Shown: positions 41,866 through 64,000, counted from the stretch's first letter. The stretch is 64,000 nt of DNA from an uncultured Hyphomicrobiales bacterium (GCA_964462685.1 CAYWYR010000001.1:108137-172136); one strand, 5' to 3'. The notes: generated from the sequence alone by a model not told the origin. A program made the numbers and translations.

Positions 41866-43227
41866 ATGTTTATCAAACAGATTCTTATCGGATTAATATT
41901 TTTATCGGCATTTATAGCAGCTGATTCGCAGGATAGAAGCCAGTATTTTACTTTTGGCGAGCCTTACAAAGCATCCGTAGTAGTATTGCCACACAGCAGC
42001 AATGATTCCCTTCATGCTATCGTGATGCACAGAATAAGTTATGAAACTCTACAGTTTACCAGAACCCGAAAAGGTGGACTTACTACTTATGCCGCGGAAA
42101 CAGAGGTCAATATCACCTTTAGGAATTCCGAGGGTATCGTAAAAAACAGAACGTTCTGGCGTGATACTGTAATTACTACTGACTTTAGTGAAACCAGTAT
42201 GAAAAATAAATGGGTAGAGGGTGCTATCCAGACAGACCTACCACTGGGGGAATATTCGGTGGAGATTGAATTTGATACTAAGTCAAGATATAGGAAAAAT
42301 AAAATTGAATTAGCAATAGATTTCCCTGAAGGCTTTTACAAGTCCAATGATGATGCGACATTTGTATTCGCTGAAAAAAATGAAGAAGCCGGTATAACAA
42401 CTCCTTTTATCGATGGGGATAAGATATTGTTCAACCCTCAAGGGGCAAGTATCAAAATCTTCACTGAAGTGAGCGATATCGCTGGGCAGTATATCTTCCA
42501 GTTCGAGAAACTGACACTCTCGGAGTACCAACCTGAAGATCCAGAAACGGGCGATGAGCCACTTATGGATAGTGAGCTTGTTTATTCTGGTTCAGTAGAA
42601 CCGAAAATTGATACTCGTATTGAACTCATTACAGACCGCCGAGAAGTTTATCTGATAGACAAGCCTTTTAAAAATGACTCACTTAATACCTTATATTTTG
42701 ATATCGAATTCCCTTCAGATAAATTACAGCCAGGTAGTTACAGGCTAAAACTTTACGATGATCAGGGGGATGACACTCTACAGAAAAGATTTGTGGTTAA
42801 CTGGGAAAACAGACCGCAGTCGCTTCAGGATATCGAAGGGGCAGTTGAGTATATGTATTATATTCTGGATGATGAAAAATTCGAATCAATGAAATCTCTG
42901 AATGATGACAAGCAGGAAAAGGCTTTCAATCAGTATTGGGAAAATATTGACCCAACCCCCCAGACTCCATTTAACGAAGCACTTTACCAGTATTATAGCC
43001 GTGTGGACTATGCCTTTTTCAACTACCGGACTCTTGTAGAGAAAGACGGTGCAAAAACTGACCGTGGTAAGATTTACATCCTATATGGCACTCCCGATCA
43101 AAGAGATGAGGGCTTTGAGGGTGATGAATCGGTTATCAGATGGAAGTATGAAAAGCTTAGAAAAGAGTTTTTATTTACAGCCATAAGTACTGGGGTATAT
43201 AGGTTAACAGCGATAAATGAAATATAA
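41866..43227 (+). CDS. Secreted hypothetical protein with a GWxTD-like C-terminal region
   Basis: Signal peptide. C-terminal DGAKTDRGKIYILYGTPDQRDE and WENIDPTPQTPFNEALYQYYSRVDYA resemble GWxTD-domain proteins. Assigned from memory of the family. Confidence 0.4.
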   Translation: MFIKQILIGLIFLSAFIAADSQDRSQYFTFGEPYKASVVVLPHSSNDSLHAIVMHRISYETLQFTRTRKGGLTTYAAETEVNITFRNSEGIVKNRTFWRDTVITTDFSETSMKNKWVEGAIQTDLPLGEYSVEIEFDTKSRYRKNKIELAIDFPEGFYKSNDDATFVFAEKNEEAGITTPFIDGDKILFNPQGASIKIFTEVSDIAGQYIFQFEKLTLSEYQPEDPETGDEPLMDSELVYSGSVEPKIDTRIELITDRREVYLIDKPFKNDSLNTLYFDIEFPSDKLQPGSYRLKLYDDQGDDTLQKRFVVNWENRPQSLQDIEGAVEYMYYILDDEKFESMKSLNDDKQEKAFNQYWENIDPTPQTPFNEALYQYYSRVDYAFFNYRTLVEKDGAKTDRGKIYILYGTPDQRDEGFEGDESVIRWKYEKLRKEFLFTAISTGVYRLTAINEI

Positions 43228-43269
43228 TTCTTAATTTAGCCGACTTATCTTAACAAATCAGTTAAATAA

Positions 43270-44208
43270 ATGACCATTCTCGAAGTAGAGAACGTAGTTA
43301 AAAAATTCGGCGATTATAAAGCCACAAATAATGTATCGTTCAACGTGGATCAAGGGACTATATACGGGCTTCTGGGGCCTAACGGTGCCGGAAAGACTAC
43401 CCTGATCAGAATGATAACCAATATCTATAAACCCGATGAAGGAATCATACGCCTAGAAGGCAATGAAGTAAGCCCAGCTATTCAGGAAAGGATTGGTTAC
43501 CTGCCAGAGGAAAGAGGCCTTTATAAAAAGATAAAGGTAATCGACCAGCTGATATATTTCGGTACTCTGAAAGGCATGACATCACACGCAGCCAGGCTAT
43601 CGGCTATGGACTGGCTTGCCAGACTGAACGCAGTTGACTTCGCTCAGAAAAAAGTACAAGAGCTATCAAAAGGTATGGCTCAAAAAGTACAGTTTATAGC
43701 CACTGTATTGCACAATCCACCCTTTTTGATTCTCGATGAGCCGTTTTCAGGTTTTGATCCCGTTAATGCAGAACTCCTGAGACATAGCATATTAGAACTT
43801 AAGAAACAAGGCACGACTATCATCCTTTCTACTCATGTGATGCAGCAAGTAGAGGAGATGTGTGATGAGATTACCCTCATAAGTAAAGGTAAGGCTATTC
43901 TGCAAGGTAGTGTAAGGGAAATCAAAAGACAGCATGGCAGGGATATTTTAATCTTAGAAACAGATGGGGATACATCATTTCTGGACAGTATCGGAGGAAT
44001 AAATATAGTAAACAAAACTGCTGGACGGGCTGAAATAAGAGTTGGTGGCGATCAGGATTTGGCAAAGCATATTCTCGAAGAAGCTATTAAATGCTGCACT
44101 ATATACCGGTATGAGCTTCTTGAGCCCCACCTCAATCAGATTTTTATCGATACGGTTTCAGATGATGAAGAGTATATATTGACAGATGACGGAGGGGTAG
44201 CGAAATGA
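43270..44208 (+). CDS. ABC transporter ATP-binding protein (ABC-2 subfamily)
   Basis: Walker A GPNGAGKTT, signature LSKGMAQKV, Walker B ILDEPFSGFD. Confidence 0.85.
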   Translation: MTILEVENVVKKFGDYKATNNVSFNVDQGTIYGLLGPNGAGKTTLIRMITNIYKPDEGIIRLEGNEVSPAIQERIGYLPEERGLYKKIKVIDQLIYFGTLKGMTSHAARLSAMDWLARLNAVDFAQKKVQELSKGMAQKVQFIATVLHNPPFLILDEPFSGFDPVNAELLRHSILELKKQGTTIILSTHVMQQVEEMCDEITLISKGKAILQGSVREIKRQHGRDILILETDGDTSFLDSIGGINIVNKTAGRAEIRVGGDQDLAKHILEEAIKCCTIYRYELLEPHLNQIFIDTVSDDEEYILTDDGGVAK

Positions 44209-45509
44209 CAAATAAAGTACTTACGATTATCGGGCATGAATATAGCTCAAAAGTAAAGTCCCGTGGTTTTCTGATAGCTACTTTTCTTGCTCCTATAGGT
44301 ATAGTGGCTCTATATGGGTTAATTATATACCTTTCAATTTCCTTTGATACAACCGAAAAGAAGCTTTTCTTTATAGATAACGGCCTGCCTATGATGGAAA
44401 ATATCATAGAGCAGGACCCTAATTTATACGAGCTAACTGATAGGGAAGTAGATGATCTCAAATCCGACGTCCAGGAAGGCAAGATCGACGGCTATGTAAC
44501 AATCCCATCAGATATTGTTGAAAATGGAGAGTTTTCAGTTTATACCACGGGCGGGGGTGGTACTGGATATATCAGTAAGCTGAAAACCGATGTAGGGGAT
44601 GTTGTAGAACAACTGCGAATTGACGAAGCCGGTATAGATCAGTCTATACTGGCGGAGATTTATGCTCCAGTGAGGCTGAGCACTAATAAGATCAACGAGG
44701 ACGGTAAAGAAGAAAAAGATGCTACTGAGATAAAATCATTTATAGGGATAGCTTTCGGTTTTATAATGTATATGCTGATCTTCATTTATGGTTCGTTTGT
44801 TTCCCGTGGTGTGCTTGAGGAGAAGTCCAATAGAATCATCGAGATTATAGCGTCATCGGCCAAACCGATTGATATATTGTTGGGAAAAGTTATCGGGATT
44901 GGTGCGCTAGCCCTCACGCAGATTTTCATGTGGCTGATAGTTATAGGGGCAATGCTTGCAATTATTGGCGGTATTGGGTTAACCCCTGATGCTGATGATC
45001 TGCAAAAGACAATGGACAGCCAGCCTATGGTTGCCCCTCAGGCGGAAAGCCTGCCTTTAGAAATGATAGATTCTGTAACCAGTTCGATTGATGCTACTGT
45101 GATTGTCAGCTTTATCTTTTTCTTTATCATAGGATTTCTGATTTATTCGGCGATATTCGCAGCTCTTGGGGCGGCAGTTGATAATGAACAGGATATGGGC
45201 CAGTTACAGTTGCCTTTTACTTTGCCTATTATATTATGTATAGGTATGATTACGCCTGTTACACAGAATCCTGATGGACTACATTCTATCATATTCACAA
45301 TGTTCCCGCTGACTTCCCCTATTCTCATGCCGGCGCGGATAGCAGCTACTAATGTACCTTTGTGGGAGGTTATCGTATCCGGTTTGCTTGCTATTCTAGG
45401 ATTTCTGGCTATCCTGTGGGTGGCGGGTAAAATCTATAGAATTGGAATGCTATCTACAGGTAAGAAGCCAAGCTTCAAAGATTTGTGGAAATGGATCAGA
45501 ACGGCATAA
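44205..45509 (+). CDS. ABC-2 type transporter permease with a large extracytoplasmic loop
   Basis: A 4-nt overlap with the ATPase gene. An N-terminal TM helix, a roughly 150-aa loop, then five TM helices. Confidence 0.6.
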   Translation: MTNKVLTIIGHEYSSKVKSRGFLIATFLAPIGIVALYGLIIYLSISFDTTEKKLFFIDNGLPMMENIIEQDPNLYELTDREVDDLKSDVQEGKIDGYVTIPSDIVENGEFSVYTTGGGGTGYISKLKTDVGDVVEQLRIDEAGIDQSILAEIYAPVRLSTNKINEDGKEEKDATEIKSFIGIAFGFIMYMLIFIYGSFVSRGVLEEKSNRIIEIIASSAKPIDILLGKVIGIGALALTQIFMWLIVIGAMLAIIGGIGLTPDADDLQKTMDSQPMVAPQAESLPLEMIDSVTSSIDATVIVSFIFFFIIGFLIYSAIFAALGAAVDNEQDMGQLQLPFTLPIILCIGMITPVTQNPDGLHSIIFTMFPLTSPILMPARIAATNVPLWEVIVSGLLAILGFLAILWVAGKIYRIGMLSTGKKPSFKDLWKWIRTA

Positions 45510-45517
45510 TATTCTCG

Positions 45518-46456
45518 TTATCTAAATAGTTCACCCCTGAACCTGGCACCGATAAATGTTGAAGTATTCGGTCTGGGTTCGGGGTTTTTAAAATCATCGA
45601 ACATCTCCTCATATCCTAAGTAAATATCGATACCACCAGCATTTCCTCTTATCTGTGCCCCCAGCTCTGTTCTGAAAAGAGACTCAATACTGCTGCCATC
45701 TGAATAAGCTGTATAAATGTTTCTGCTGAATAAATTAATCCATTTGTTAATATCATAGCCCAGTTCCAAATGTGGTGTGAATTTATACTGCAGTTCAGAT
45801 ATATTAAAGCCGTTTATATAATCTGGTGTTCTATAATCCGAGCCGACTATGATATACTGCGCGTCAATACCCCAGGATATTTCCAGCCCGTTCGCTAAAT
45901 TACTGTATTTAGGTGATAGATAGCCGAGTAGGGGCCCGGCATATAGAGTTACTCTTTTTGTAGAGCTTGTTGGGTTGCTCTCTTCATAATTGTCGATTTC
46001 GTGCCTGCACCTGTGTCCAAACCCTATTTCTATTATCCCAAAATCAAACTTTTGGCTATACCGTATCTCTTCTTGCCAGCTAGCGGCATAGGGATCAAAG
46101 TTTATATCATTAAAAGGTGTGGCAAGCACATTCCCGATAACCGTAAACCAAAGTGCGGAATTATCCCACCTGTAGAAAGTACCGCTACCACCAAAAACTA
46201 GATTATGGCGTAATGCTCCATCAGCGCTTCCATTCCCTCTTTCGTAAAGGCCTATAAAATCCAGATCATGCATAAACCTGACTGAATCTAAATCACTTCG
46301 ATCCAGCGGGGAATAAAAGCCGAATCTCTGCATGTCATGTTGGCTGTAAACATTGCTAACACAAAACAGTATGAGCGATAATTGAATAATATATTTGATA
46401 GTAAACCTCTTATTTTTAATATATTTATATACCGTTAACATAGAAATGGTTTCCAA
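45518..46456 (-). CDS. Hypothetical outer-membrane (beta-barrel-like) protein
   Basis: Signal peptide ending VSNVYSQ. Alternating hydrophobic pattern. Aromatic-rich C-terminus. Confidence 0.4.
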   Translation of the reverse strand: METISMLTVYKYIKNKRFTIKYIIQLSLILFCVSNVYSQHDMQRFGFYSPLDRSDLDSVRFMHDLDFIGLYERGNGSADGALRHNLVFGGSGTFYRWDNSALWFTVIGNVLATPFNDINFDPYAASWQEEIRYSQKFDFGIIEIGFGHRCRHEIDNYEESNPTSSTKRVTLYAGPLLGYLSPKYSNLANGLEISWGIDAQYIIVGSDYRTPDYINGFNISELQYKFTPHLELGYDINKWINLFSRNIYTAYSDGSSIESLFRTELGAQIRGNAGGIDIYLGYEEMFDDFKNPEPRPNTSTFIGARFRGELFR

Positions 46457-48029: not shown

Positions 48030-48956
48030 CTATTGCAATATCCAGATTGCAGATCCAACAGATACAAACAACCAAAGAAGTATAGCTAATATAAGCGGTT
48101 TTAACCCCATAGATTTTATCTTTTCTATTGAAAAGCTAAAGCCTATAAATAGAATGGCAACTACCATTAAGCGTTTTGATCCAAATCTGATAGCATCTGA
48201 AAGTTGAGTCGGCAATGCCAAGTATTGATTTACTAGTATAGCTAATACGAAAAGCAGTATAAAAACCGGTACTTTTGGCCTGCCGCTACCCTTGAATAAG
48301 TATGAAAACGCAAGTGAAAGTGGAATAATCCAAAGCGCTCGGGCAAGTTTAACTGTTGTCGCAATTTCCAAAGCTTCAGGGCTGAATGCACTTGCAGCAC
48401 CCACTACAGAGCTTGTATCGTGTATAGCAATGGCTGCCCATAGGCCAAACTGCTGGCTGCTCATACCTAAGACCTCTCCCAGATAAGGGAACAGTAATAA
48501 CGCTATTGCGTTGAGCATGAATACTACTCCGAGCGCTATGCCGATCTGGTTTTGGTTGGCTTTGATGGTAGGGGCTATTGCCGCGATTGCGCTTCCACCG
48601 CATATTGCGGTTCCCGAAGATATCAGTACCCCCGTTTTGTTATCTTTAAGAAGTAATTTCGATCCGATATAGCCTAACAGGAGTACTGATAGGATAGTGC
48701 TTAAGGTAAGCCAGAAACCTTCCCCGCTTACTTCCAATGCTTTATCAAGTGAAATCCCAAACCCTAAGCCTACTATGGCGGTTTTGAGTAGGATGCCTGT
48801 CATTTTTGAGTATTTTGCTAAACCTGATTTAGCTTTTTCGGTAGTTGCGAATACTGCGATAGCTAAACCTATAATAAGTGCAATCGGTGCAGAAACTGTC
48901 AGAAAAAAAATCCCTACTACGCATATCAATACCAGCCAGTCTATCATACTAAGCAT
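48030..48956 (-). CDS. Polytopic inner-membrane protein, YeiH/UPF0324-like
   Basis: About 9-10 TM helices in 308 aa. Family assignment is tentative. Confidence 0.4.
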   Translation of the reverse strand: MLSMIDWLVLICVVGIFFLTVSAPIALIIGLAIAVFATTEKAKSGLAKYSKMTGILLKTAIVGLGFGISLDKALEVSGEGFWLTLSTILSVLLLGYIGSKLLLKDNKTGVLISSGTAICGGSAIAAIAPTIKANQNQIGIALGVVFMLNAIALLLFPYLGEVLGMSSQQFGLWAAIAIHDTSSVVGAASAFSPEALEIATTVKLARALWIIPLSLAFSYLFKGSGRPKVPVFILLFVLAILVNQYLALPTQLSDAIRFGSKRLMVVAILFIGFSFSIEKIKSMGLKPLILAILLWLFVSVGSAIWILQ

Positions 48957-48959: not shown

Positions 48960-51900
48960 CTAATCGATAACTACGGTTAGTTCGCCTTCAATAGAGTCAG
49001 TTTCTAATTTCAGAAAGTATAGGCCACTCGCTATTCCCGCTCTGTCAAAAATAACTTCGTCCTCTTCTAAAAAGCCTTCGAAAATTACCCTTACAAGATT
49101 TCCCGCTCTGTCGAATAAACTGATATCCGTGTTTTCACCAGCAGGAACATTTAAGAAAATGGTAGCTATATCTTGAACTGGATTCGGCTGAATGCTATAA
49201 AGCCCAAACTCTCCCGACATTGACAGAAGCCTTGTACCTCCATCTTCACAAAGTTCAGTTAGTGTAAAAACTCCTGGTCCTAACTCCACATCGCTACCAG
49301 CTGTAATATCGAGAAACTGTGAAACCGGGCTTGTTTCGGAATTACCTAAAGCAACTTTGAATGGTATTAGGAGTTGGCTGTTTTCATTAAGTTGATCCTC
49401 AGTAATCGTAATGTTTAGTCTAAATTTACCATCAACTTCTATTTGGGTAAATTCAAACCCTGAGTATGTCAATACAGTAGGATTGTATTCGATACTAAAA
49501 TTCAAAACATCATTTGTGATAAAGTATTGATCAGCTTCGGGCAAATCAATGATAATATTGATACTTTCCCCCTGTGCCCCTGAAGCGTCATTTATTTTAC
49601 CTATTATCGTTTCGCTGATTGTGCGGCCTACTATAGTAACTGTATAGGGCACATCAAATCCGCTTTCATAGATTAGAAGCTCGGCTATAGAATATGACTG
49701 AGACATAGGATCAAACGATGTTATATATCCTGTAGAAGTATTAGGAATAATCACGGTTGGAAGCACTATTCCATCCACACTGATATATTCGTTGGGATCG
49801 GATAATAGCTCATAATCAACTATTGGAACATTACGAAGACTGTTATTCCTTATACCGTCTTCAATATTCAAAACTGACTGCTTACCGACTTCGGTCAATG
49901 GGAAAAAAATAGGTGTTTCAACCGATAGCCTTCTTTCCTCTACTTCGGCTATGATATTCGCACTAGCGGTTTTGCCATTATAGTATATCTCGATCACTGC
50001 TTCAAAAATACCTAACTCATCCGCTCTGAAAGTAAATGCCTGCATCTTGGCAGTTTGGTATAGCAGATCTTCAGTAGTTGAAGTTTTGAGCATATTGAAT
50101 TTCTCTGGATTCGTTCCTGTGATATCAAAGCCCTCGATAGAGATATATGGGTCGGTTATCCCTTGTAGATAGTCATCTATTTTCAAGTATAGATCCTCAC
50201 CTAGTACTGTTTTTCCCAAGTCGATATCATTAATTATCAGAACTGGTTCTATAATACTTAAAGTATTGCTCGTATCTCTAACAACTGTATTGAACAGGGC
50301 TCCCCATTCTATCACTTTACCGTCTTCACCCGCGGATACAAATGTCTTCCCGCCTGGAACTAAGTCCAAAGAAAATGGGATACCGTCATTAAATCCATCA
50401 TAATCATGGGCTTTAAAATCCTCTATTATAGACCAGTTCTCGGTATCAATAGCGGTTATTTCGCCCAAGCGCCCTATTGCAATTAAGGTTGTGCCTAGCT
50501 CATCAAAAAACAAATCAGTAGTGTTTACCAGACCAGGGTCAGTATATTCAAATATGGGTTCACCCATATTATCTGAATCATATACATTTATATTATCGCG
50601 ACTGGCAATTGCGGTTGTACTCAAGTCTTTATTGAAAGCAATAGAGTACAAATTATTAAAAGGGACTTGATCTTGATGTTGGACTGACCAGTCATTGGCA
50701 TCGTGAGTATAAATCAAACCTGATTCTGATATACTTATTATTTCATCAAATAAAGGATTGTATTCCAGTGTGCGGATTCTTGAATTATGGTCGGCATTTG
50801 AATTTAGATCATTAAAACTATCAGTATCTATAAGGATTACAAATCCGTCTTCGGTAGAAAATGCTAGTTGGTTTTTATCTTGGAGTAGTGTGATATCTGT
50901 TACTGAGTCATCGTTCAATGAATAAGTATTTAATATCTCTAATGTAGAGGTATCCCATTTTATTACTTTGCCGAAAAGGGTGCCTGTATAAAAATATCTG
51001 CTGTCATCGGAAAACTCTATGCAAGTGATTTTATCGTTCGCATCAAAAAGTGTCGCTATCGGCAGGAATGTTTCATAGTCCAGTATAATTAGTTGATTCG
51101 CTCCTACTGCCACTATTGACTTGTCTGGGCTTACTTTGACATCGTTAATAGAAGATGTAGGCCCATGGAATTCTTTTAATAGCGACCCAAAAGATTTACC
51201 GTCACTGATATCGCATTCAGCAATAATACGCCCTAACTGGGTAACGTTGTTCTGATCGGTTTGCCATAAAAAAGGGCTTTCGGTTATGTCTGGGGTTATT
51301 ATGGATATATTATTAGTTGCTAAATCTTCAAAAAATAAATCAACAGGTAAATCTCCTACTCCAGAATATCCTATTGCAACATTATCACCAACTAAATAGG
51401 AGTCATTGATTTTTGTATCATCCAAGAAAATCTGCATTTCTAAATTAGATTTTATATTGCCGCCACCTATTTCAAAAGAGTTATCGCAATATCCATCAAG
51501 CACTTCTATCTGGTAAACCCTATAGAGATTATCAATTGGAGAAAATGTAATATCAATTATCTGGGATTGTCCAGATTCTAAATCAAATGTACTAGGGGTT
51601 AGTTCTACATCTGTAGAAGGGGATACTAGTCTGATATCCTTAAAATCATAATTGTTAGCTGTCACTGTGATTTGATCTACAAGCGTCTCCCCTTGATCCA
51701 GCTCTCCAAAATCAACAAATGTACTAGATATTTCTAGTTTGGGTAAATCATCAGTTTGTATAAAATCAAAATCTGATCTAATATCATCCTGCCCACCATA
51801 TATTACAGATAATGTTCTTTCGCTGTTGTCGCAATCAGGATCAATCTTAAATTCTGCCGCTAAGCTATAATTATCAGTATAATACTTAGAGTAAACAAAT

Positions 51901-52622
51901 CTTTTAAGTGCCTCATCAAAGCTATCAATGTTTAGATTTTCCTCTGAGTGGCCTCCTGAATTAGCTACTATGGACTTTACCTCATCATAGATTATATCAA
52001 ATGACAGTACTGATAAAGTGTGGTTTTTTGTTCGCAAAAAGTCAGAGATTAGAAGTTCGCTATCAGTGGTAAAGCTATTATCGGTAAATACTAGGATATC
52101 AGCCGATGGAGTATCGAAGTGATCTAAGACTGAAAACAAACCACTTCCATCGCCAAGAAAAGAGTCGTCAAAACTATATTTTCTTATAGTAGGGTTGATA
52201 TTATTGAAGTCAAGGTCTATCGGTGAAAAATTACGAGGCTTTATAAGCTGAGCTTTGTAATCAAATACGAATACCAAAGACCTTTTATCAAATGATAGAG
52301 CCTCTATATCGGCTACGGCATTTTGAATAGCTACCAATTTATCAGATTCATTCAATAAAGATTTATCGATCATCAAAACCAGATCCCTGTCAAGCATAGA
52401 AGGGTTGGCAGGAACTGAAGACAGCTCAAAATTAACCTCGTTACCGTCAATCAAAATCGATAAATCATTCTTGTTGGACACTTCGGGGAATCCGTTCGCA
52501 TTCCAAAAAGCTAATTCAGCGTTAACTGTAAGACCGTTGTTCTCGCTTTCAATAACTGCCAAACTCTGGGATTGGATGAGTAAAGGCATTATTAGTGAAA
52601 GTAGTAAAGTAAATATTCGCAT
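48960..52622 (-). CDS. Giant secreted protein (about 1220 aa) with a WD40/PQQ-like beta-propeller, Ig-like domains and a T9SS C-terminal domain. The ORF continues to 52643, but the signal peptide starts at Met 52622.
   Basis: Signal peptide MRIFTLLLSLIMPLLIQSQS. Repeating propeller blades in the middle. C-terminal IQPNPVQDIATIF ... GLYFLKLETDS ... VVID is Por CTD-like. Confidence 0.6.
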   Translation of the reverse strand: MRIFTLLLSLIMPLLIQSQSLAVIESENNGLTVNAELAFWNANGFPEVSNKNDLSILIDGNEVNFELSSVPANPSMLDRDLVLMIDKSLLNESDKLVAIQNAVADIEALSFDKRSLVFVFDYKAQLIKPRNFSPIDLDFNNINPTIRKYSFDDSFLGDGSGLFSVLDHFDTPSADILVFTDNSFTTDSELLISDFLRTKNHTLSVLSFDIIYDEVKSIVANSGGHSEENLNIDSFDEALKRFVYSKYYTDNYSLAAEFKIDPDCDNSERTLSVIYGGQDDIRSDFDFIQTDDLPKLEISSTFVDFGELDQGETLVDQITVTANNYDFKDIRLVSPSTDVELTPSTFDLESGQSQIIDITFSPIDNLYRVYQIEVLDGYCDNSFEIGGGNIKSNLEMQIFLDDTKINDSYLVGDNVAIGYSGVGDLPVDLFFEDLATNNISIITPDITESPFLWQTDQNNVTQLGRIIAECDISDGKSFGSLLKEFHGPTSSINDVKVSPDKSIVAVGANQLIILDYETFLPIATLFDANDKITCIEFSDDSRYFYTGTLFGKVIKWDTSTLEILNTYSLNDDSVTDITLLQDKNQLAFSTEDGFVILIDTDSFNDLNSNADHNSRIRTLEYNPLFDEIISISESGLIYTHDANDWSVQHQDQVPFNNLYSIAFNKDLSTTAIASRDNINVYDSDNMGEPIFEYTDPGLVNTTDLFFDELGTTLIAIGRLGEITAIDTENWSIIEDFKAHDYDGFNDGIPFSLDLVPGGKTFVSAGEDGKVIEWGALFNTVVRDTSNTLSIIEPVLIINDIDLGKTVLGEDLYLKIDDYLQGITDPYISIEGFDITGTNPEKFNMLKTSTTEDLLYQTAKMQAFTFRADELGIFEAVIEIYYNGKTASANIIAEVEERRLSVETPIFFPLTEVGKQSVLNIEDGIRNNSLRNVPIVDYELLSDPNEYISVDGIVLPTVIIPNTSTGYITSFDPMSQSYSIAELLIYESGFDVPYTVTIVGRTISETIIGKINDASGAQGESINIIIDLPEADQYFITNDVLNFSIEYNPTVLTYSGFEFTQIEVDGKFRLNITITEDQLNENSQLLIPFKVALGNSETSPVSQFLDITAGSDVELGPGVFTLTELCEDGGTRLLSMSGEFGLYSIQPNPVQDIATIFLNVPAGENTDISLFDRAGNLVRVIFEGFLEEDEVIFDRAGIASGLYFLKLETDSIEGELTVVID

Positions 52623-52662
52623 AAAAAAAAGTAGTATTAACATTGTTCAACGCTAATACTAC
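52623..52662 (-). terminator. Intrinsic terminator between the two giant genes, ending immediately at the start codon of the downstream gene
   Basis: Perfect 9-bp stem gtagtatta / taatactac. On the minus strand it is followed by T8, then ATG. Confidence 0.5.
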
Positions 52663-52701
52663 TAACACTTTTTTAGGGAAAATGTTTTCTTAATATCCCT
52701 A

Positions 52702-55700
52702 CTATTCGATAATTACAGATATTATACCTTTGTGCGGGCCTGCTTCAATATAAAGGTTATATGCACCAGATGGCAATCCTGATATATCCATTGCCCGCCC
52801 TGATATCAAGTTTACGCCTTTATCGAAGCTGTAGGATGAGATATACTCGCCTGCGGTATTGTAAACCTGTACTTTGATTTCATAAGGTATATTTTTATTA
52901 GCGGCTAAGGTAAACAGCCCGTTATTAGGATTTGGGAACACTGTAAGCCCGTACTCTATTTCAAGATAAGAGCCAACGCTAACCAGCGCCTTAAAATCGA
53001 ATTTCCAAAAATCGTTATCCGATATCCTTCCTTCAGAATTCTGAGCTACTAGATTCCACCAGTATTCTCCGTTTTCCATATCATTGATAATGGACGGTAC
53101 ATAATCCAAAACACTTATTACTGTATCATATATAATATTATCGCCATTCAAATCATAGGAAATCTGGAATCTGTATTCATCAGCACCATCAACACTTTGG
53201 AACTGAAATGAAGAGAATACAGCTTCATATATTCCACCTCTCTCTGGGGTGGTTCTCTCAGGCATACTGAGTTTGGTACCAAATTCAACTTCTTCCCAAT
53301 CACTTGTATCATTGGGTTTAATACCTCTCACCCTTAGCCTGTAGTCGCTGTTATAGCTAAGGCCAGATATTTCCCTTTCATTTGTTTTTATGCCAGTTAT
53401 AGATTCTACAACCGAGTTATCCGATAGGTCATTTAGTTCTAACTCATAAGAATCTACCCCGCTAAGCGCTGTCCATCGTGCGGTCAAAAATGTGTCTTTA
53501 TTTACGCCACTGGTTGGTGCGGTGATGGAAATACTACCTAATGGAGGGACAGTCGTAAAGTTCCAGGTATCGGACCATTCGCTATATCCACCCGCTATCT
53601 GATACCTGACTTTCCAATAATAGCGTGTGCCCAGTTCTGTTGTAGGTGTGTAAGAAGCTTGATTGACAGTTTGCTCCACCAGCGGACTATTCAGAGTTTC
53701 ATCATTCCCTAGTACTAGATCGTATTCAGCTCCCGGTATAGTTCCCCATACAAGTGGAGTGAGTTGCTCAATATCGATGGCATTATTATCAGGTGATGTT
53801 AAAGAAAGTGCGGGATATATTGTTGTGAATGACCACGTATCAGTCCAGTCAGTCTCAATATTATTAGCGGTAGCCCTTACCCGCCAGTAGTAAGTCGTAC
53901 CTAATTCTAATGATGAGTAGTCGTAGGTTAGTCCACTTATATCTGTCGTATCCAATAGCAAGTTATTAAACTGACTATCAGTTGATAATTGAAGACTGTA
54001 TGACGATGCACCCATAGACTCCGACCAAGTCAGTTCTCCGTTTTGTTCTAAAGTCTTTGACCCGTTGAGGGGAGATGAGAGAGAAAAACCAGGTAGCTTT
54101 GTAGTAAATGAGAATGTATCCGACCATTCGCTGTAATCAAAGCCATCATAGCTCATAACCCGCCAATAGTATGTTACTCCACCTGTCATATTTGTAAAGT
54201 TGAATGTAGTATGGGTTAGTGATCTTGTAAATACCCGAGACTGTAGGTTCGCGTCTGAGAAGATTTCCAAACTATCGGCAACCGAGGATGAGTACGAGTC
54301 CCATACAAGATCAACTCCGAATGGGTCTGCACCCTGAACCATGTCCGCGGGACTAACTAGAGTAGGAGTAGTAATTCCTGTTCTAAAAGCTTCTGTCACT
54401 GACCAGTCACTTTCACTTTCTACATCTACTGCTTTCGCTCTCCAATAATACATAGTGGAAGGTTGAAGGCTTTGATTGATATATGTTGTGTCGGTTATAT
54501 TCTCGACTGTTGCCGTGCTTGCACTAAAATCGCTTTCTGTGGCATATTCAATAGAATATGAGTCTGCTGCGGGATTTGAACTCCATAGTAGTGAAACAGG
54601 TAAATCAAGCCCACCAATACTATCTACAGGGCTGATAAGATTTACGGGAGATAGTTTTGTCTTAAACGAGAAAGGTGTAGAATAAGCCGTTTCACCACCT
54701 GGATAAATAACCTTTACCCTCCAGAAATATTCCTTTTCAAACTCTAAACTGGCTGTTGTAGTAGAAAATTCGTTTGTGCTAAGAGAATTTGAGGTATAAT
54801 CTATATTGGTAAAAGTATTATCTTGAGATAATTCCAGTATGTACCCTCCTGCACCCGCAATATTCGTCCAAGTGAGTACTGTATCAAGCCCTAAGCCTTC
54901 TGAGCCGTCAGTAGGCGATACCAGGGTAGTTGGAGGTACTGTAGTCCTGAAACTCCAAGTATCGGTCCAAGGAGAAATAACATTTCCGTTAACAGATCGG
55001 ACTCTCCAATTGTATTCAGTGTAGTAGCTAAGTGTAGGTGTTACAACTGATGTATTGCTGATACTATCACCAGAAGCTACGATTTGTGTGAACTGTTCAT
55101 CGCTTGCAAGCTGCCAATCATATCCTGTGGCATTTGAAACCCCAGACCACGCTAATGTAGTATCAATCGATATGTATTCAGAATCGTTGGCAGGGGAGAT
55201 AAGGGTGGGTATAGTTATATCAACTGGCAGATCACTTACCCAGATACTTCGGCCATAAGTTCCGGCATATATTTTCTGGTTCTGCCCATCCAGTACTACA
55301 GTTCGCACACTGGTATATGGAAGGTTTTTAGAATACTCTACCCAACCGTTGCTGTTATCATCTCTATAGAATACACCTCTGTCATTGCCGAGCCATAGTC
55401 TGTTATTAGAACCTGCTTGGTGCGCCCCGTCCAATGCTGGAATGTTAGCAAGCCCCTGTGATTGATTGGTAAAAGTACTACCGAAATCATCGGAGTAATA
55501 GACTTTTTCATTATTAGAATATCCACCGTATATCAGCCACAGTTTATCAGAATCAGATGAATGGAAAACAACTTCCTGAAGAGGCTGATTGCTATTGGAG
55601 GTTATCTGATCCCAAGTAGTACCGCCATCGGTGGTTTTATAAATAGAGTTCGAATTACTATTTCTAAAGCTGAATACGATTCTGTTGGAATCCACAGGTG

Positions 55701-57552
55701 ACATATCTAAAACACGAATGGTATTGGTATGCGAGAAATTTGTCAATCTTTGATAATCATCTTCCTGAAGAAAATTATTCGATTTCCACACATTATAATA
55801 TCCCACAAGCATTGTAGAAGATTTTTGAGCACTCATAATATATGGTGTTTCCCAAGCTCCTTCTTCATCTGTTTTATTAACCCAGTCACTTTGGGCTGAA
55901 TCCCATTCAAAAGTCAATTTTATGAAATTTTGCCCACCGTCACCAGAACCGGAGATCTCTCCGTAATATAGAGCACAGAACATATTATCATCATCATTGG
56001 GGTCTATATGCGATACAAAACCATCCCCGCCGAGTGGCACATACCAGTTTCCGTCATCAAGTAACATTTGGGTACCGTTATCCTGCGTTCCGCCGATAAT
56101 TCGTTTGGGATTAATAGTTTGCACATCAAAATCGTAGAACTGGCTAATCGCTAAGCCCTCGGCCAGCCACGTGTATGAGCTGCCACCATTGGATGTTGAA
56201 AACAGTCCACCATCATTTGTGATATACAATATACTTGTATTGGGTTTGAAGTGGAGCGAATGCTGATCTGCATGGATAACTGGGGAGCTGTTCTTGTTAT
56301 GCCCGGTCCAACCAGTCCACATAGCTACTGCTTCCCAGTTTTGCCCCCCATCTGTAGATTTTTGCAGATTAATACCGCCAACGTAAACTTCATTTTTATT
56401 AGTTGGGGATACCTCAATTGCTAAATCGTAGAAGGCTTGCCCGCCAGTATCACTACCATCAGAATGATAACCTAAGATATTGGTGGATGTATGCCTTGCG
56501 GAAAACGAATTACCTCCATTTGTTGATCGGTACACTCCGTGTAAGTTTCTAAAGTTCGCTGCCAATACATAAAGGTAATCAGGGTCGTCAGGTGTAACCG
56601 CCAGTTCTATTCTGTGCAGACTGTTTGAGGAAGGCAGACCATTTGTCAATTCAGCCCAAGTTATACCGGCATCGGTAGATCGATAAACTTTTTCATCAGC
56701 ACTGGCGTAAATTGTTGAAGGCGAATTAGGTTTGAATACTATATCATAACAGTTGTCGGTAAGAGTTCTATCCCAACTATCCCCTCCATCTGTTGATACT
56801 ATTATACCGCCGTTACCAGCAGCATACACAAGATCAGGATCTGTAGGGTGTACAATTATCTCCCTTAATAACCAGAAATCCGTGAGATTGGTTTGCCAGT
56901 TCGTCTCCGCCCAAGTACTGCCACCGTCTGTTGATTTCATGACGCCAAGGGAGTAAGCATCTGTGCCGTAGCCGTCGCCAGTAGCTGCATATACAATATT
57001 TCTGTTTGAAGGTGCGAACTCTATATCGGTAATACCTATAGGCTGAAGAATCGATAATCTGTCAGTCAAAGGAGTCCATGAGCCCCCAGCGTTTCTTGTT
57101 TCCCATATACCGCCGAGTGGCATCCCTACAAGCCACCTGTTAGCATCCCCAGGGTCAAACGCGATGGTATTTATCCGGCCGTTTCCAAAGTTTCTACCCT
57201 GGGAACTATCCGGCCCTACAAGCGACCAATCAGACTGATCGTTATGCTTATCGAAAGTGTTTTTATCTTGATCAATTAATTGGAAGCTATTATTTTCTGG
57301 CATATATAAATGCCCGGAACTAGTAAGCCTTGAGCTCCAATAATGTTCCCACCGCTTATATTTTTTATATACAGCCTCTCTTTTATCTAAACCGAGCTCA
57401 TCTGCTTTTGCATAGAATGCGTCCTGAATCTCATAGAAATTCGGATTTTCTTTACCCGTCCATTCTATCCAAGGCTGTGATGAAAGATGCCCCAAGCCAA
57501 TGAACAAGAAAAAGGAAATAAGAGAAAAAGTGATTTTAAACATAATAGCCAA
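52702..57552 (-). CDS. Giant secreted BNR/Asp-box two-propeller (GH74/sortilin-like) protein with about ten FN3-like repeats and a T9SS C-terminal domain
   Basis: Signal peptide. Asp-box motifs (STDGGSTW, STDGGDSW, STDAGITW, STNGGNSF, STDGGQNW, TTDGGTTW, SDDFGSTF). FN3 repeats each ending in a YYWRV / Y-x-WRV-type strand. C-terminal LTVFPNPNNGLFTL ... GAYNLYIEAG ... VIIE. Confidence 0.7.
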   Translation of the reverse strand: MAIMFKITFSLISFFLFIGLGHLSSQPWIEWTGKENPNFYEIQDAFYAKADELGLDKREAVYKKYKRWEHYWSSRLTSSGHLYMPENNSFQLIDQDKNTFDKHNDQSDWSLVGPDSSQGRNFGNGRINTIAFDPGDANRWLVGMPLGGIWETRNAGGSWTPLTDRLSILQPIGITDIEFAPSNRNIVYAATGDGYGTDAYSLGVMKSTDGGSTWAETNWQTNLTDFWLLREIIVHPTDPDLVYAAGNGGIIVSTDGGDSWDRTLTDNCYDIVFKPNSPSTIYASADEKVYRSTDAGITWAELTNGLPSSNSLHRIELAVTPDDPDYLYVLAANFRNLHGVYRSTNGGNSFSARHTSTNILGYHSDGSDTGGQAFYDLAIEVSPTNKNEVYVGGINLQKSTDGGQNWEAVAMWTGWTGHNKNSSPVIHADQHSLHFKPNTSILYITNDGGLFSTSNGGSSYTWLAEGLAISQFYDFDVQTINPKRIIGGTQDNGTQMLLDDGNWYVPLGGDGFVSHIDPNDDDNMFCALYYGEISGSGDGGQNFIKLTFEWDSAQSDWVNKTDEEGAWETPYIMSAQKSSTMLVGYYNVWKSNNFLQEDDYQRLTNFSHTNTIRVLDMSPVDSNRIVFSFRNSNSNSIYKTTDGGTTWDQITSNSNQPLQEVVFHSSDSDKLWLIYGGYSNNEKVYYSDDFGSTFTNQSQGLANIPALDGAHQAGSNNRLWLGNDRGVFYRDDNSNGWVEYSKNLPYTSVRTVVLDGQNQKIYAGTYGRSIWVSDLPVDITIPTLISPANDSEYISIDTTLAWSGVSNATGYDWQLASDEQFTQIVASGDSISNTSVVTPTLSYYTEYNWRVRSVNGNVISPWTDTWSFRTTVPPTTLVSPTDGSEGLGLDTVLTWTNIAGAGGYILELSQDNTFTNIDYTSNSLSTNEFSTTTASLEFEKEYFWRVKVIYPGGETAYSTPFSFKTKLSPVNLISPVDSIGGLDLPVSLLWSSNPAADSYSIEYATESDFSASTATVENITDTTYINQSLQPSTMYYWRAKAVDVESESDWSVTEAFRTGITTPTLVSPADMVQGADPFGVDLVWDSYSSSVADSLEIFSDANLQSRVFTRSLTHTTFNFTNMTGGVTYYWRVMSYDGFDYSEWSDTFSFTTKLPGFSLSSPLNGSKTLEQNGELTWSESMGASSYSLQLSTDSQFNNLLLDTTDISGLTYDYSSLELGTTYYWRVRATANNIETDWTDTWSFTTIYPALSLTSPDNNAIDIEQLTPLVWGTIPGAEYDLVLGNDETLNSPLVEQTVNQASYTPTTELGTRYYWKVRYQIAGGYSEWSDTWNFTTVPPLGSISITAPTSGVNKDTFLTARWTALSGVDSYELELNDLSDNSVVESITGIKTNEREISGLSYNSDYRLRVRGIKPNDTSDWEEVEFGTKLSMPERTTPERGGIYEAVFSSFQFQSVDGADEYRFQISYDLNGDNIIYDTVISVLDYVPSIINDMENGEYWWNLVAQNSEGRISDNDFWKFDFKALVSVGSYLEIEYGLTVFPNPNNGLFTLAANKNIPYEIKVQVYNTAGEYISSYSFDKGVNLISGRAMDISGLPSGAYNLYIEAGPHKGIISVIIE

Positions 57553-57812
57553 CTATACATAGAGATTTAGAAAAAAGGGTGATATCTCAACAAAATTAAC
57601 AAAACCAAATCAAAATTAGCATACTTATTCCGCGTATTTTGATAGAGTAAAATACACTATCCTGTTCTTTGAAAGTTATAAGTAATAGTGATCGAAGGAT
57701 ATGAAACAGAATAGGCAATCAGCCGTTTTAATGTACTATATCAAATCTGTAGGCCAACACTCTTTTTAGCCTCTCCAGAGACCACTATCACTACAAACCT
57801 GAAAGGGAAGAC

Positions 57813-58995: not shown

Positions 58996-59029
58996 AACCC
59001 TGTACTTAATCATAGTACGGGGTTTTTAT
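58996..59029. terminator. Bidirectional terminator between the acyl-CoA dehydrogenase gene (+) and higA (-)
   Basis: 11-bp stem aaccctgtact / agtacggggtt followed by a T-rich run. Confidence 0.6.
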
Positions 59030-59397
59030 TTATAATCAGCGACTAAAACTGATGCTGATAGATTAAGCTTGCTTTCTAAGTTTCTTATCATTTGTACTGT
59101 AAGTTTTTTCTTCCTATTGAGAATTTCTGAAACACTACTTTTACCGCCGATAATTCCGACTAGGTCTTTTTGTTTCAAGCTTAATTCCTCCATTCTTATC
59201 TTTATCGCTTCTATAGGATCAGGAGCATCTATGGGGAAGTGAGTTTGTTCATAATTATCTATTAAAAGAATCAATACTTCGGCTTCATCTCCTTCCGGTG
59301 AATTTGAAGGAGCATTGAAAATTTCGTTTAGCCGTTCGAGAGCTAAATAATAATCATTTTCATTTTTTATAGGTTTGATATTCATATTATGATCCAT
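59026..59397 (-). CDS. higA: HigA-like antitoxin (HTH, XRE family)
   Basis: Lies 5 nt downstream of the higB-like gene. C-terminal HTH-like segment LKQKDLVGIIGGKSSVSEILNRKKKLTVQMIRNL. Confidence 0.6.
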   Translation of the reverse strand: MDHNMNIKPIKNENDYYLALERLNEIFNAPSNSPEGDEAEVLILLIDNYEQTHFPIDAPDPIEAIKIRMEELSLKQKDLVGIIGGKSSVSEILNRKKKLTVQMIRNLESKLNLSASVLVADYK

Positions 59398-59402: not shown

Positions 59403-59699
59403 TTATATATTATTCGCATCGATTTTATCATAGTGCGAGTGTGTTCCTATAAATCGAATAAAAGCCCATTGCTTTTCATAATTAAACTTAACTACCAGCC
59501 GGAACGAATTACCTTTTATATTAAAAACAGCTCTTCCGTTTTTTAGAATACTCGCGTTCGCATATACTCTTTTGATATCAGAAGGAGATTTCCAATCGGC
59601 CTTCTTCGCAGTATCATACCATGTTTTAAGGTATTGCTCAGAATCATTATAGATATTCCAAAAATCTATAAGGGCTTTTTTAGATACTATTCGTTTCAT
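59403..59699 (-). CDS. higB: HigB-like toxin (RelE/ParE superfamily mRNA interferase)
   Basis: 98 aa. VFNIKGNSFRLVVKFNYEKQWAFIRFIGTHSHYDKI matches the conserved HigB core. The toxin gene precedes the antitoxin. Confidence 0.65.
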   Translation of the reverse strand: MKRIVSKKALIDFWNIYNDSEQYLKTWYDTAKKADWKSPSDIKRVYANASILKNGRAVFNIKGNSFRLVVKFNYEKQWAFIRFIGTHSHYDKIDANNI

Positions 59700-62287: not shown

Positions 62288-64000
62288 TTAATTTGATCTG
62301 ATTATATCCAACGCCTGTTCGCTTGCATTTAGAAGTGGCTCTATAGATAGTGGATGGCCCACCGCACGCTTCATCCATACATCTGGTGGTAATTTTCCCT
62401 GGGATAGAATACGCTGCATTTCTTCCGCTAAGTCTTTGCCTTCCATATACTGCTCTAATTGAAACTGGGCTAAATACCCGACTGGGTAAGATGCCAGGTA
62501 AAGCGGATAATCTATCATGTGGGAATAAACTGCGAGAATAGGGGAGCCTGGGCTTCCGAATATCGGGGCGTAATACTCATCCCAAACTTCGGCGGCTATC
62601 TCGATCGTCCGGTCGCGAAGTTCGGCGGGTGTAACTTCCGGATTATCATATAGCCACTTCCAAAGTCTCATATCAACTAAGGATACGCCCATCATTTCAT
62701 AATTAGTCCATAAGTTGTCCAGGGTTGTCAGATGTTTGCCAATGCCATCTGGTTTCGGCATACCGAGAAGTGGTAAATCCCTGCTTTGGAAAACAAACGC
62801 CGTTGCTTCGGAAAAGGCGGTATTAGGCACTCCGTTCATAATATAATAGGGAGTATCATGTAGGGAAATAGTCTGTTCTATATTGTGTCCGAACTCATGT
62901 ACTGCGATATTATATCCTTTGTAATCCATGCCTTCGGGTTTGATATGTGTACGGAGGCGGGACTTATCAGATTTCATCTGAGCTCCCCATGCATGCCCTG
63001 CTCCACGGCTTGCGTCAACTTCCACCTGCTCGGCTAGGAAAGCTGCTCTTTCATTTTCAAAACCTAACTCTTTCAGTATTCTCGGTAAATCAGCTTTAAA
63101 AGCCGCTGCGTCAGGATACCTATCGCGTGTTATAGCCGATAGTTCATCTTCATTGATGTTGGAGCGTGCTTTAAAACCGTCATACCATATATCCCACGGT
63201 TCTAGCTGCCTACCCAGTCTATCCTGAACCAGCTCAGCGGTTTTCTTAATGGTTTCTGAAGAGATGAGAGCAGTAAAAAGGCTGTCGATTTTTTCAAAGG
63301 AATAGCCCATCTCCCCTTCAAATTTTCGAACTATATAATTCTGATCTTTGGGGTAGAACGAGTCCGCATTTCTTACCGCTAAGAAATTATCCAAAAGATA
63401 CTGATAACGTACTGTTGACTCTGGAGCAGCTTGTGTTTCACCTGATTCACCGTATATTTTGTTTTCTATAGGATCCCATTTATATTCTGACTTATTGATT
63501 ACTTCATTTGGTATATCTTGGGTGATGATATTTAGCATCACATTATAGACTAGTTCCTGTTTTCGATAACCATTATCTTTGTTGGCATAATTGGATTTGA
63601 TCTCATCACGTAGATTCCAATGTGAAATTAGCCTCATATCTTCTGGAAAAGGAGAGTTCATATCTTTATCTACTACCTTACCCATATAGATATAGTATTC
63701 ACTTATATATTTATCAGATTTATTTTGAGCGTCTGAGACCATTAGCCCAGCTTCTGGCCCAACCCTAGAGGAAAAAAGGTCGCCGGCCGCTGCCATAGCC
63801 CACTGTTTATCTGTCCAAGTCTCTTCGTTACTGAGTTTTTCTTCTAAAGTATATTGGGGGAAGTTGAGAGCAATAAAAAAGGCGGTCTTGTTCTTGAACA
63901 TATCCTCGGCAAAATGGGATGAAGGTTCCCAGTCAGCCATCATGCCCTCTAACTCGCCAATCTCTCCTGAATCTGTATGAACAGGCATCTTTAGTTGCAC
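62288..64000 (-). CDS. Second gluzincin peptidase paralog (M2/ACE-like). N-terminally truncated by the window edge.
   Basis: HEFGHNIEQ followed by FSEATAFVFQ at the same spacing as HEFGH ... TEAIAMLFG in 7435..9033. Confidence 0.55.
   Translation of the reverse strand: MQLKMPVHTDSGEIGELEGMMADWEPSSHFAEDMFKNKTAFFIALNFPQYTLEEKLSNEETWTDKQWAMAAAGDLFSSRVGPEAGLMVSDAQNKSDKYISEYYIYMGKVVDKDMNSPFPEDMRLISHWNLRDEIKSNYANKDNGYRKQELVYNVMLNIITQDIPNEVINKSEYKWDPIENKIYGESGETQAAPESTVRYQYLLDNFLAVRNADSFYPKDQNYIVRKFEGEMGYSFEKIDSLFTALISSETIKKTAELVQDRLGRQLEPWDIWYDGFKARSNINEDELSAITRDRYPDAAAFKADLPRILKELGFENERAAFLAEQVEVDASRGAGHAWGAQMKSDKSRLRTHIKPEGMDYKGYNIAVHEFGHNIEQTISLHDTPYYIMNGVPNTAFSEATAFVFQSRDLPLLGMPKPDGIGKHLTTLDNLWTNYEMMGVSLVDMRLWKWLYDNPEVTPAELRDRTIEIAAEVWDEYYAPIFGSPGSPILAVYSHMIDYPLYLASYPVGYLAQFQLEQYMEGKDLAEEMQRILSQGKLPPDVWMKRAVGHPLSIEPLLNASEQALDIIRSN

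Follow-up and report, generated by a model that had tools for sequence, protein, structure and literature searches.

The window analysed here is a 64,000-nucleotide stretch of DNA from an uncultured Hyphomicrobiales bacterium (GCA_964462685.1 CAYWYR010000001.1:108137-172136). It carries two adjoining genes for giant proteins, here called P1 and P2, which both lie on the minus strand with P1 upstream and P2 downstream. An earlier note on this DNA had described both as surface proteins ending in a type IX secretion system (T9SS) tail, and had left it undecided whether the beta-propeller head of P1 is an enzyme of glycoside hydrolase family GH74 or a binding module. Profile searches, structure prediction and comparison with related loci point to a conserved pair of exported surface proteins, the first of which has a GH74-like fold with a changed catalytic site.

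The two genes and the anatomy of their products

The coding sequences and the domains of their products were placed as follows.

52702..57543, minus: P1 coding sequence, 1613 aa from ATG 57543; the open reading frame (ORF) reaches TTG 57552 (1616 aa)
57478..57543, minus: Sec signal peptide of P1, assigned by eye; cleavage probably before Gln, between HLSS and QPW
57253..57477, minus: helical, family-specific N-terminal segment of P1, ~75 aa, predicted by AlphaFold2 (AF2) as helices at residues 24-96
55219..57252, minus: predicted tandem seven-bladed Asp-box beta-propellers of P1, GH74-like in fold and without an Asp70 equivalent (AF2, Foldseek, hhalign)
52993..55218, minus: eight FN3-like modules of P1, ~93 aa each (module alignment; fn3-type profiles)
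52705..52941, minus: T9SS type A C-terminal sorting domain of P1 (PF18962)
48960..52622, minus: P2 coding sequence, 1220 aa from ATG 52622; the maximal ORF is 48960..52643 (1227 aa)
51873..52385, minus: VWA-like alpha/beta domain of P2 with a degenerate metal ion-dependent adhesion site (MIDAS; D-K-S-L-L), from alternating strands and helices in AF2 and a Pfam match in an orthologue
51207..51740, minus: Ig-like domain of HYDIN/ASH type and a small beta-sandwich in P2 (Pfam, a weak choice_anch_D match, AF2)
50232..51188, minus: seven-bladed WD40 propeller of P2, about residues 479-797 (Pfam WD40, PDB sequences, Foldseek)
49260..50225, minus: two C-terminal Ig-like domains of P2 and a weak cohesin-like beta domain (AF2; relatives match ASH/HYDIN Ig families)
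48963..49205, minus: T9SS type A C-terminal sorting domain of P2 (PF18962 and TIGR04183)

Residue numbers count from ATG 57543 in P1 and from ATG 52622 in P2; in the 1616-aa ORF beginning at TTG 57552, P1 numbers are higher by 3. An exact-sequence look-up in public collections found the 1613-aa form of P1 on record, and P2 as 1220 aa in NCBI-derived records and as 1209 aa, from a later Met, in JGI records; the maximal-ORF forms, including the 1616-aa P1, were absent from these collections. The N-termini of P1 orthologues agree with a start at ATG 57543. For P2, translation from ATG 52643 would give an atypical signal peptide (MLILLFFMR…), and translation from ATG 52622 a conventional one (MRIFTLLL…).

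Both proteins carry the signals of exported cargo at their two ends. By eye, P1 begins with MFKITFSLISFFLFIGLGHLSS, followed by QPW, and P2 with MRIFTLLLSLIMPLLIQS, followed by QS. The Gln behind the probable cleavage site of P1, Gln23, is conserved in at least 90% of the P1 family described below; orthologue signal peptides end in …LLA and …MQA, each followed by QPW, and thus keep this Gln. At the C-termini, Por_Secre_tail (PF18962, gathering cutoff 27) was recognised in P1 (30.9 bits), in P2 (29.2 bits) and in a P1 paralogue at the window start, ORF 3..2447 (31.8 bits), in agreement with the Por tails that had been claimed for the giants. With TIGR04183 (cutoff 23), P2 (25.8 bits) and the paralogue (32.5 bits) scored above the cutoff and P1 (19.5 bits) below it. 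Judged by these sequences, P1 and P2 can be classed securely as T9SS type A cargo, recognised by its C-terminal domain (CTD), with a surface-protein architecture. With known cargo of this type they share an N-terminal signal peptide and a C-terminal Por_Secre_tail/TIGR04183 domain; their passenger domains are unrelated to those of such cargo. According to PMC9143113 and PMC8545088, type A cargo loses its CTD and is linked to anionic lipopolysaccharide (LPS), and by analogy the same cleavage and attachment would be expected of P1 and P2.

Between the propellers and the C-terminal anchor signal of P1 lies the FN3 array, in the position expected of the stalk that the earlier note had proposed. 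The note had counted about ten modules, each ending in a YYWRV-type strand. An FN3-like array is present, with eight modules of 90-95 aa (ORF residues 779-1520), and the YxWRV strand stands about 23 residues ahead of each module's end. Over the whole of P1, Pfam gave 50.9 bits for fn3 (cutoff 25), 71.6 bits for Ig_Rha78A_N (above cutoff) and 44.5 bits for Pur_ac_phosph_N; module by module, seven of the eight were recognised as FN3-type. We rejected a recent DNA duplication as the origin of the array: Tandem Repeats Finder reported nothing relevant at the DNA level, and the modules are only 13-39% identical in pairwise comparison. P1 aligns over its full length with the orthologue at a related locus, L086, with only six gaps, which indicates that the eight-module length of the spacer has been kept.

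P2 is built from a different set of domains. Its AF2 model (predicted local distance difference test score, pLDDT, 79.5) suggests the order small beta domain, VWA-like alpha/beta domain, Ig, beta-sandwich, 28-strand propeller, two Ig domains, beta domain and tail. The WD40 propeller scored 43.7 bits in Pfam, its sequence matches in the PDB include PkwA and WDR5, and in Foldseek its model superposed on the WD40 domain of PkwA (5yzv) with a template modelling (TM) score of 0.92 and a root-mean-square deviation of 2.2 Å. Together with the Por_Secre_tail and a HYDIN/ASH ('choice-of-anchor D') domain of Ig-like type near residues 295-390, this agrees with the description of the neighbour as a propeller and Ig-like giant with the same tail as P1. 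The VWA-like N-terminal domain had not figured in that account. It is recognised by Pfam in the P2 orthologue P0251 (29.4 bits, cutoff 23.8), and the P2 of the window gave no Pfam match there. The P2 family resembles VWA-containing adhesins in having a VWA fold with a full MIDAS in its consensus (DxSxS…GGTD…TDG), whereas the MIDAS of the window P2 is degenerate (DKSLL). The cohesin match is weak (E 0.02). We found no description of the combination VWA, Ig, WD40, Ig and T9SS tail. A word-indexed search had returned P2 alone, as if it were an orphan; exhaustive HMMER searches overturned this, finding P0251 (1233 aa, 29% identity, E 1e-131), P0252 (1223 aa, 28%, E 3e-119) and further relatives of about 1150-1660 aa at 18-24% identity.

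The double-propeller head of P1 and its relation to GH74

The head of P1 had been proposed to combine two Asp-box propellers, as in GH74 xyloglucanases or in the sortilin/Vps10 domain. The AF2 model of residues 1-787, computed from 63 homologues, reached a pLDDT of 87.7 and a predicted TM score of 0.89, and predicts a helical stretch of about 95 aa and, behind it, 14 blades of four strands each, arranged 7+7. Asp-boxes are frequent in the first 778 aa (6 by the strict pattern SxDxG, 10 by the relaxed pattern [ST]x[DN]xGxx[WFY]; 0.26 expected from shuffles). When the model was compared with the PDB by Foldseek, the best 25 matches were all GH74 structures (E 1e-31 to 2e-26, TM 0.56-0.63, 15-18% identity), followed by unrelated double WD40 propellers at E 1e-18. 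At the sequence level, a profile of the P1 family found GH74 first among PDB sequences (2cn3, 8e-31), then sortilin (1e-11) and Ycf48 (6e-9), and hhalign matched the family to 76 GH74 sequences with a probability of 100% (E 2.7e-46, 639 aligned columns). The match begins at residue 89 and leaves the N-terminal helical segment, whose family consensus is NFY..Q..F..YW…KGKGWKQFKRWE, outside. The modelled fold and the profile comparisons together place the head securely as a remote, superfamily-level relative of GH74 with tandem seven-bladed Asp-box propellers, as the first half of the proposal had it.

The sortilin half of the proposal was not supported: no sortilin chain appeared among the best 50 fold matches, and a ten-bladed propeller of sortilin type was rejected on this ground. 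Sortilin/Vps10 (PF15902) shares the Asp-box propeller and the weak profile similarity with the P1 family. It differs in having a single ten-bladed propeller with 10CC modules, whereas P1 has a 7+7 pair, no Cys-rich module behind the propellers and two Cys in total. PF15902 gave no match to P1 at E ≤ 0.01, the paralogue passes (37.3 against a cutoff of 33), and most P1 homologues carry a precomputed PF15902 match. PorZ, a T9SS component, is also built of two propellers followed by a T9SS CTD. It was absent from the top fold matches, unlike GH74, and P1 has Asp-boxes and a clear homology to GH74; a PorZ-like role was therefore rejected on the fold search. Double propellers of the periplasmic-sensor type (BT4663, 4a2l) gave a TM score of only about 0.3 against the head.

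P1 belongs to a very large family. In a collection of 5.8 billion sequences, 6964 relatives of the head were found at E ≤ 1e-5, and all those bearing an organism name are from Bacteroidota. The best matches listed have 34-40% identity over 93-100% of the head, and the relatives listed go under the names 'VPS10 domain-containing', 'T9SS type A sorting domain-containing', 'PKD domain-containing', 'glycosyl hydrolase' and 'photosystem II stability/assembly factor-like'. P1 has in common with them the segment at the N-terminus, the invariant motifs and the Por_Secre_tail. A typical member measures about 840 aa, with head and tail, or about 1100-1230 aa when PKD, CUB or Ig_7 inserts are present; in P1 and its two orthologues there are eight FN3-like modules, and the near-invariant Glu of the motif GGDGME has been lost.

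The family motifs are H424-A-D426-x-H428, D444-G-G, Q487-D488-N489-G, D507 and the loop G368-Q-x-W-Y-D373, which is an insertion relative to GH74. All 64 family sequences have H424, D426, H428, D444, Q487, D488 and D507. By DSSP strand order, the invariant residues belong to the B-C and D-A loops in four successive blades around the place where the two propellers meet; this strand topology would place them opposite the Asp-boxes, which sit in C-D loops, and on the face that carries the catalytic loops in GH74. Position 510, the Glu of GGDGME, is Glu in 58 of the 64 sequences; the three P1 orthologues have Val twice and Gln once, with Val in the window P1.

One further family member lies in the window:

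3..2447, plus: paralogue of the propeller region of P1, truncated N-terminally by the window edge, with Ig_7-like modules and a T9SS tail

Its identity to the propeller region of P1 is 30% over 562 aa (E 2e-62) and GGTQDNGT is kept, which confirms the paralogy to the BNR region that the earlier note had read from this ORF. The paralogue retains the family Glu (GGADGME) and has Cys-containing Ig_7 (CHU_C-associated)-like modules in place of FN3. It is encoded 50 kb away from P1, on the other strand, with ruvA next to it at 2467..3060. At the locus of a distant family member (L094:6035-6913), a gene of the PorP/SprF family stands immediately upstream of a propeller-PKD-CTD gene; PMC9143113 links PorP-like proteins to anchoring in the case of CTD proteins of type B and not of type A.

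The question left by the earlier note was examined residue by residue. A homologue search with a 154-aa fragment of Xgh74A returned fragments of less than 270 aa only, and the reference set was hence taken from genome contigs: 76 genuine full-length GH74 genes, with residues numbered as in Clostridium thermocellum Xgh74A. Asp70 and Asp480, the two catalytic Asp, are invariant in 75 of the 76. Asp70 (motif ARxDxGG) pairs with Pro142 of P1 (GMPLGG; GAPSGG in the family) in HMMER and hhalign alike, and in the HMMER alignment the D70A mutant 2cn3 and the wild-type 2cn2 differ precisely at this column. Among the 64 family members the column holds Pro in 46 and Ala in 15, the next one Ser in 42, Ala in 14 and Gly in 5, and neither has an acidic residue in any of them. 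Asp480 (motif AVGDIVGF) pairs in the alignment with D488 of GGTQDNGT, the Asp found in all 64. The other invariant GH74 residues that we checked in P1 were R68, Y75, R76, D107, R113, Y121, N154, R158, E162, R163 and D167, and W351, W352, R359, W392, W410, D418, E458, E459, F484, H486 and D508. Only D508 is kept as such. Of 19 cleft or polar residues invariant in GH74, 17 are substituted or gapped in P1. A hidden Markov model (HMM) built here from the 76 sequences gives true members about 1200 bits, the family a median of 62 and P1 47, the last in four fragments that are partly out of register.

The replacement of Asp70 by Pro, the loss of the cleft residues and the score of 47 against about 1200 bits put P1 outside GH74 proper. 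By this comparison P1 is not a member of GH74 and the two-Asp mechanism as such would not be usable, so that GH74-type catalysis by P1 is largely answered in the negative. It shares with the GH74 xyloglucanases (Xgh74A, 2CN2/2CN3; Geotrichum OXG-RCBH, 1SQJ) the tandem seven-bladed Asp-box propellers, a homology that is still detectable (hhalign 100%, Foldseek TM ~0.62) and the invariant Asp at the D480 position. It differs in the Pro for Asp70, in the loss of almost all invariant cleft residues, in an identity of 16-18%, in the extra N-terminal helical segment, the inserted family loop (GQGWYD) and its own invariant motifs, and in its fusion partners, FN3 modules and a T9SS tail in place of carbohydrate-binding modules or dockerins. 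Nor does it lie in a xyloglucan locus. The loci of eight family members (the window, L086, L087, L002, L005, L092, L093 and L094) showed no SusC/SusD pair and no neighbouring carbohydrate-active enzyme (CAZyme) gene; what surrounds them is housekeeping genes or genes of other T9SS cargo.

An annotation of dbCAN type implies for such proteins that P1 is a true GH74 enzyme after all, an endo-xyloglucanase or beta-1,4-glucanase. This appears to us extremely improbable and, on the residues compared, close to refuted. Fold and remote homology do lead to GH74 and one of the two catalytic Asp is conserved. The D70A, D60A and D465N variants of GH74 enzymes are the forms crystallised with xyloglucan oligosaccharides (titles of PDB 6mgl and 2ebs; 2cn3/2cn2), which is consistent with a need for both Asp in turnover and counts against this reading.

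The literature labels such Bacteroidota proteins GH74. In dbCAN surveys GH74 is among the most frequent glycoside hydrolase families of marine Flavobacteriaceae (PMC7440613) and of Lutibacter (PMC5219744), and 'GH74+GH74' T9SS proteins are listed outside polysaccharide utilisation loci (PMC10792170). The description fits, and these proteins may be members of the present non-GH74 family. If they are, GH74 counts overstate the capacity to degrade xyloglucan and beta-glucan. The evidence for not counting this abundant family as GH74 is the most useful by-product of the analysis.

Conservation of the pair and expression of P2

The layout of the window recurs at L086, the locus of P0251 on a 3.0-Mb contig, and at L087, the locus of P0252. 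At both, a divergent acyl-CoA dehydrogenase gene is followed by the gene for an FN3/Por_Secre_tail protein of 1613 or 1618 aa, the P2 orthologue, an alpha/beta hydrolase gene and a Cons_hypoth698 gene. The three P1 orthologues all carry G[MAT]P[LI]GG, HADQH, GTQDNGT and GGDGF[VQ]. Identities of the window proteins to those of L086/L087 are:

Acyl-CoA dehydrogenase: 91/92%
Cons_hypoth698: 54/51%
P1, whole: 53/52%
P1, propellers: 64/60%
P1, FN3 array: 45/48%
P1, tail: 42/38%
P2: 29/28%

P1-P2 is thus securely a two-gene unit conserved in three lineages. A metagenome scan for additional P1-P2 loci gave none beyond a contig already known. One partner of the conserved pair diverges very fast, P2 having 28-29% identity where P1 has 52-53% and the acyl-CoA dehydrogenase 91-92%. 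The alpha/beta-hydrolase gene of the related loci (L086:12770-13714; L087:11209-12150) is missing in the window, where 3 nt separate the P2 stop from the start of the Cons_hypoth698 gene.

The elements that bear on expression are:

57591..57618, minus: two TAATTTTG boxes (TAnnTTTG), candidate promoter of P1, found by pattern scan at 57618 and 57598
52630..52663, minus: intergenic hairpin of 15 pairs including G-U, with a 4-nt loop (folding)
52623..52630, minus: T8 run abutting the P2 ATG at 52622 (sequence read)

The gap between the genes had been given as 58 nt with a perfect 9-bp hairpin and a T8 run ending at the downstream ATG. The hairpin and the T8 run against ATG 52622 are there. The gap from the P1 stop (52702-52704) to this ATG measures 79 nt (52623..52701), the stem has 15 pairs including G-U, and 58 nt holds only for the alternative ATG 52643, which lies within the 3' arm of the hairpin. 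The 101-nt region around the hairpin folds with a free energy of -23.5 kcal/mol (z -4.0). A hairpin followed by U8 has the form of an intrinsic terminator and is like the hairpin-plus-T-run elements at other unit ends in the window; the local stem energy is -15.7 kcal/mol here and -12 to -18 kcal/mol there, with GC-rich stems of 8-10 bp. No Rfam family matched the hairpin. A dispersed repeat was rejected as its identity, near-copies in the window being no commoner than chance.

The -7 promoter consensus of Bacteroidetes is TAnnTTTG. Besides the two boxes upstream of P1, one lies upstream of the Cons_hypoth698 gene, at 49053. The 480 nt before P2 contain none by pattern scan, a weak negative, with about 0.24 boxes expected by chance. 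A scan for sigma-70 promoters was uninformative (37 sites against 32 expected). The phylum Bacteroidota is not known to use Shine-Dalgarno-led initiation. No promoter of P2 was recognisable, and we propose that P2 is probably made by read-through of a hairpin and U8 that are terminator-like or occlude the start, and hence at a lower level than P1. The earlier suggestion of terminator readthrough or attenuation remains plausible in this form.

If the hairpin and U8 are instead a plain terminator of a monocistronic P1, P2 would be transcribed independently and the two genes would be functionally unlinked, which we think rather unlikely. The form and energy of the element are indeed those of the other unit-end terminators in the window, distant relatives of P2 have no P1-like neighbour, and the closest non-orthologous relatives of P1 adjoin unrelated T9SS cargo genes, namely those of an arylsulfotransferase-CTD protein, an M43 peptidase-FN3-CTD protein and an FN3-rich CTD protein. 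The U-tract, on the other hand, abuts the ATG of P2 and leaves no space for a promoter or leader, the upstream 480 nt are without a box, and three lineages have retained the two genes in this order although P2 has diverged to an identity of 28%.

Structures are also predicted at the P2 start of the related loci: a stem of about 20 bp that ends 2 nt before the AUG at L087 (z -4.15), and a long-range stem that includes the AUG at L086 (z -3.0). That both loci fold stably at this place speaks for the reading proposed. Against it, both structures are without a U-tract and have no sequence in common with the window, and a comparison of three loci has no statistical power.

Interpretation of the pair and its surroundings

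Our overall reading, to which we give a probability of about 0.5, is that the two genes are a conserved unit which supplies a Bacteroidota bacterium with two large proteins of its cell surface, P1 presenting a binding head on a stalk and P2 being made by read-through. Both proteins would be exported by Sec, with the signal peptide probably cleaved before Gln, and the T9SS would then recognise the type A CTD and carry them across the outer membrane. With the CTD removed and the protein attached to anionic LPS as in other type A cargo, the C-terminus would lie at the cell surface and the head of P1 distal on its FN3 stalk, which would hold it some 25-30 nm away. P2 would be a second adhesin-like surface protein, fast-evolving and co-inherited with P1, and the two may cooperate.

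By analogy with sortilin, a non-enzymatic ligand-binding receptor built on an Asp-box propeller (PMC2716378), the head of P1 is most likely a specific ligand-binding head, of a receptor or adhesin, and we prefer this to a new active site. Its binding site would be a cleft lined by the polar residues invariant in the family (H-A-D-x-H, N-D-G-G, Q-D-N-G and G-G-D-G). That the P1 clade has lost the family Glu fits a binding head as well as a pseudo-enzyme.

Several observations pull the other way. Invariant His, Asp, Gln and Asn across sequences of about 35-40% identity are more typical of an active or metal site than of a generic adhesin surface, and the second catalytic Asp of GH74 is retained as D488; together these leave room for an enzymatic role with a different partner residue. 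The spatial clustering of the invariant residues is itself deduced from strand topology only. No T9SS core gene was noticed among the ORFs scanned in the window, where no search aimed at T9SS machinery was made. Distant relatives of P2 stand solitary among housekeeping genes, and the adjacency conserved in three related lineages may be simple inheritance.

In a doubtful but serious alternative, the P1 family are hydrolases that descend from a GH74-like ancestor and have rebuilt their active site, P1 being a surface enzyme or an inactivated derivative. The chemistry proposed would join D488 with another carboxylate or a His pair (H-A-D-x-H, D507, or E510 of GGDGME), and an inactivated P1 would follow from the loss of E510 in its clade. 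In the model the invariant polar residues sit on cleft-facing loops of four consecutive blades; D488 aligns with D480 of GH74; a Glu at position 510 in 58 of 64 sequences, with Val, Val and Gln in the P1 orthologues, is the pattern expected of a pseudo-enzyme subclade; and the family is very large, often with several paralogues per genome, two of them in this window. Against this, the literature searched gives no member with a demonstrated activity, no family member inspected lies within a polysaccharide utilisation locus, and a search of PDB sequences with just the conserved core (residues 420-545) found no meaningful match.

The two lines can also be joined. The family would then be a distinct enzyme family with its site in the inter-propeller cleft (H-A-D-x-H, N-D-G-G, Q-D-N-G, G-G-D-G-M-E), the P1 clade, having lost the Glu, a pseudo-enzyme receptor on an eight-FN3 stalk of fixed length that works with P2, and the hairpin the element that sets the stoichiometry of the two. 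We hold this combination to be improbable.

With the key catalytic residue of GH74 lacking in P1, P1-P2 appears as an ordinary, though uncharacterised, surface-protein cassette and not a new enzyme system, within the known pattern of large, modular and fast-evolving T9SS cargo. Multidomain cargo of this kind, in which propellers are combined with FN3 or Ig spacers and the sequences diverge rapidly, is common, and little here would surprise a specialist. The pair and its hairpin are of local interest only, as a small example in which the tuning of expression between two surface proteins can be tested.

Downstream of P2 the window continues with a conserved neighbour:

48030..48956, minus: Cons_hypoth698 membrane protein gene, starting 3 nt past the P2 stop

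The other neighbours are housekeeping genes (histidine ammonia-lyase, acyl-CoA dehydrogenase, TruA, trigger factor, ABC transporter, NADH dehydrogenase subunits, RuvA). With such neighbours, and with no SusC/SusD pair or CAZyme gene around P1-P2 in the window, a polysaccharide utilisation locus was rejected for this site.

Between the TruA and acyl-CoA dehydrogenase genes lie a gene of the HigB toxin family (~59403..59699, minus) and a 123-aa ORF without a Pfam match (59026..59397, minus). At L086 the TruA and acyl-CoA dehydrogenase genes adjoin directly, with no HigB-family gene between them, and the two genes of the window look like a lineage-specific toxin-antitoxin insertion. Elsewhere, 41866..45509 (plus) encodes a GWxTD-domain protein and then an ABC-2 type transporter pair (ATPase and permease). 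Sizeable ORFs without a Pfam match at E ≤ 0.001 are 62288..64000 (minus), 45518..46456 (minus), 12301..13758 (plus) and 3071..3790 (plus), the first of which ends on the last base of the window.

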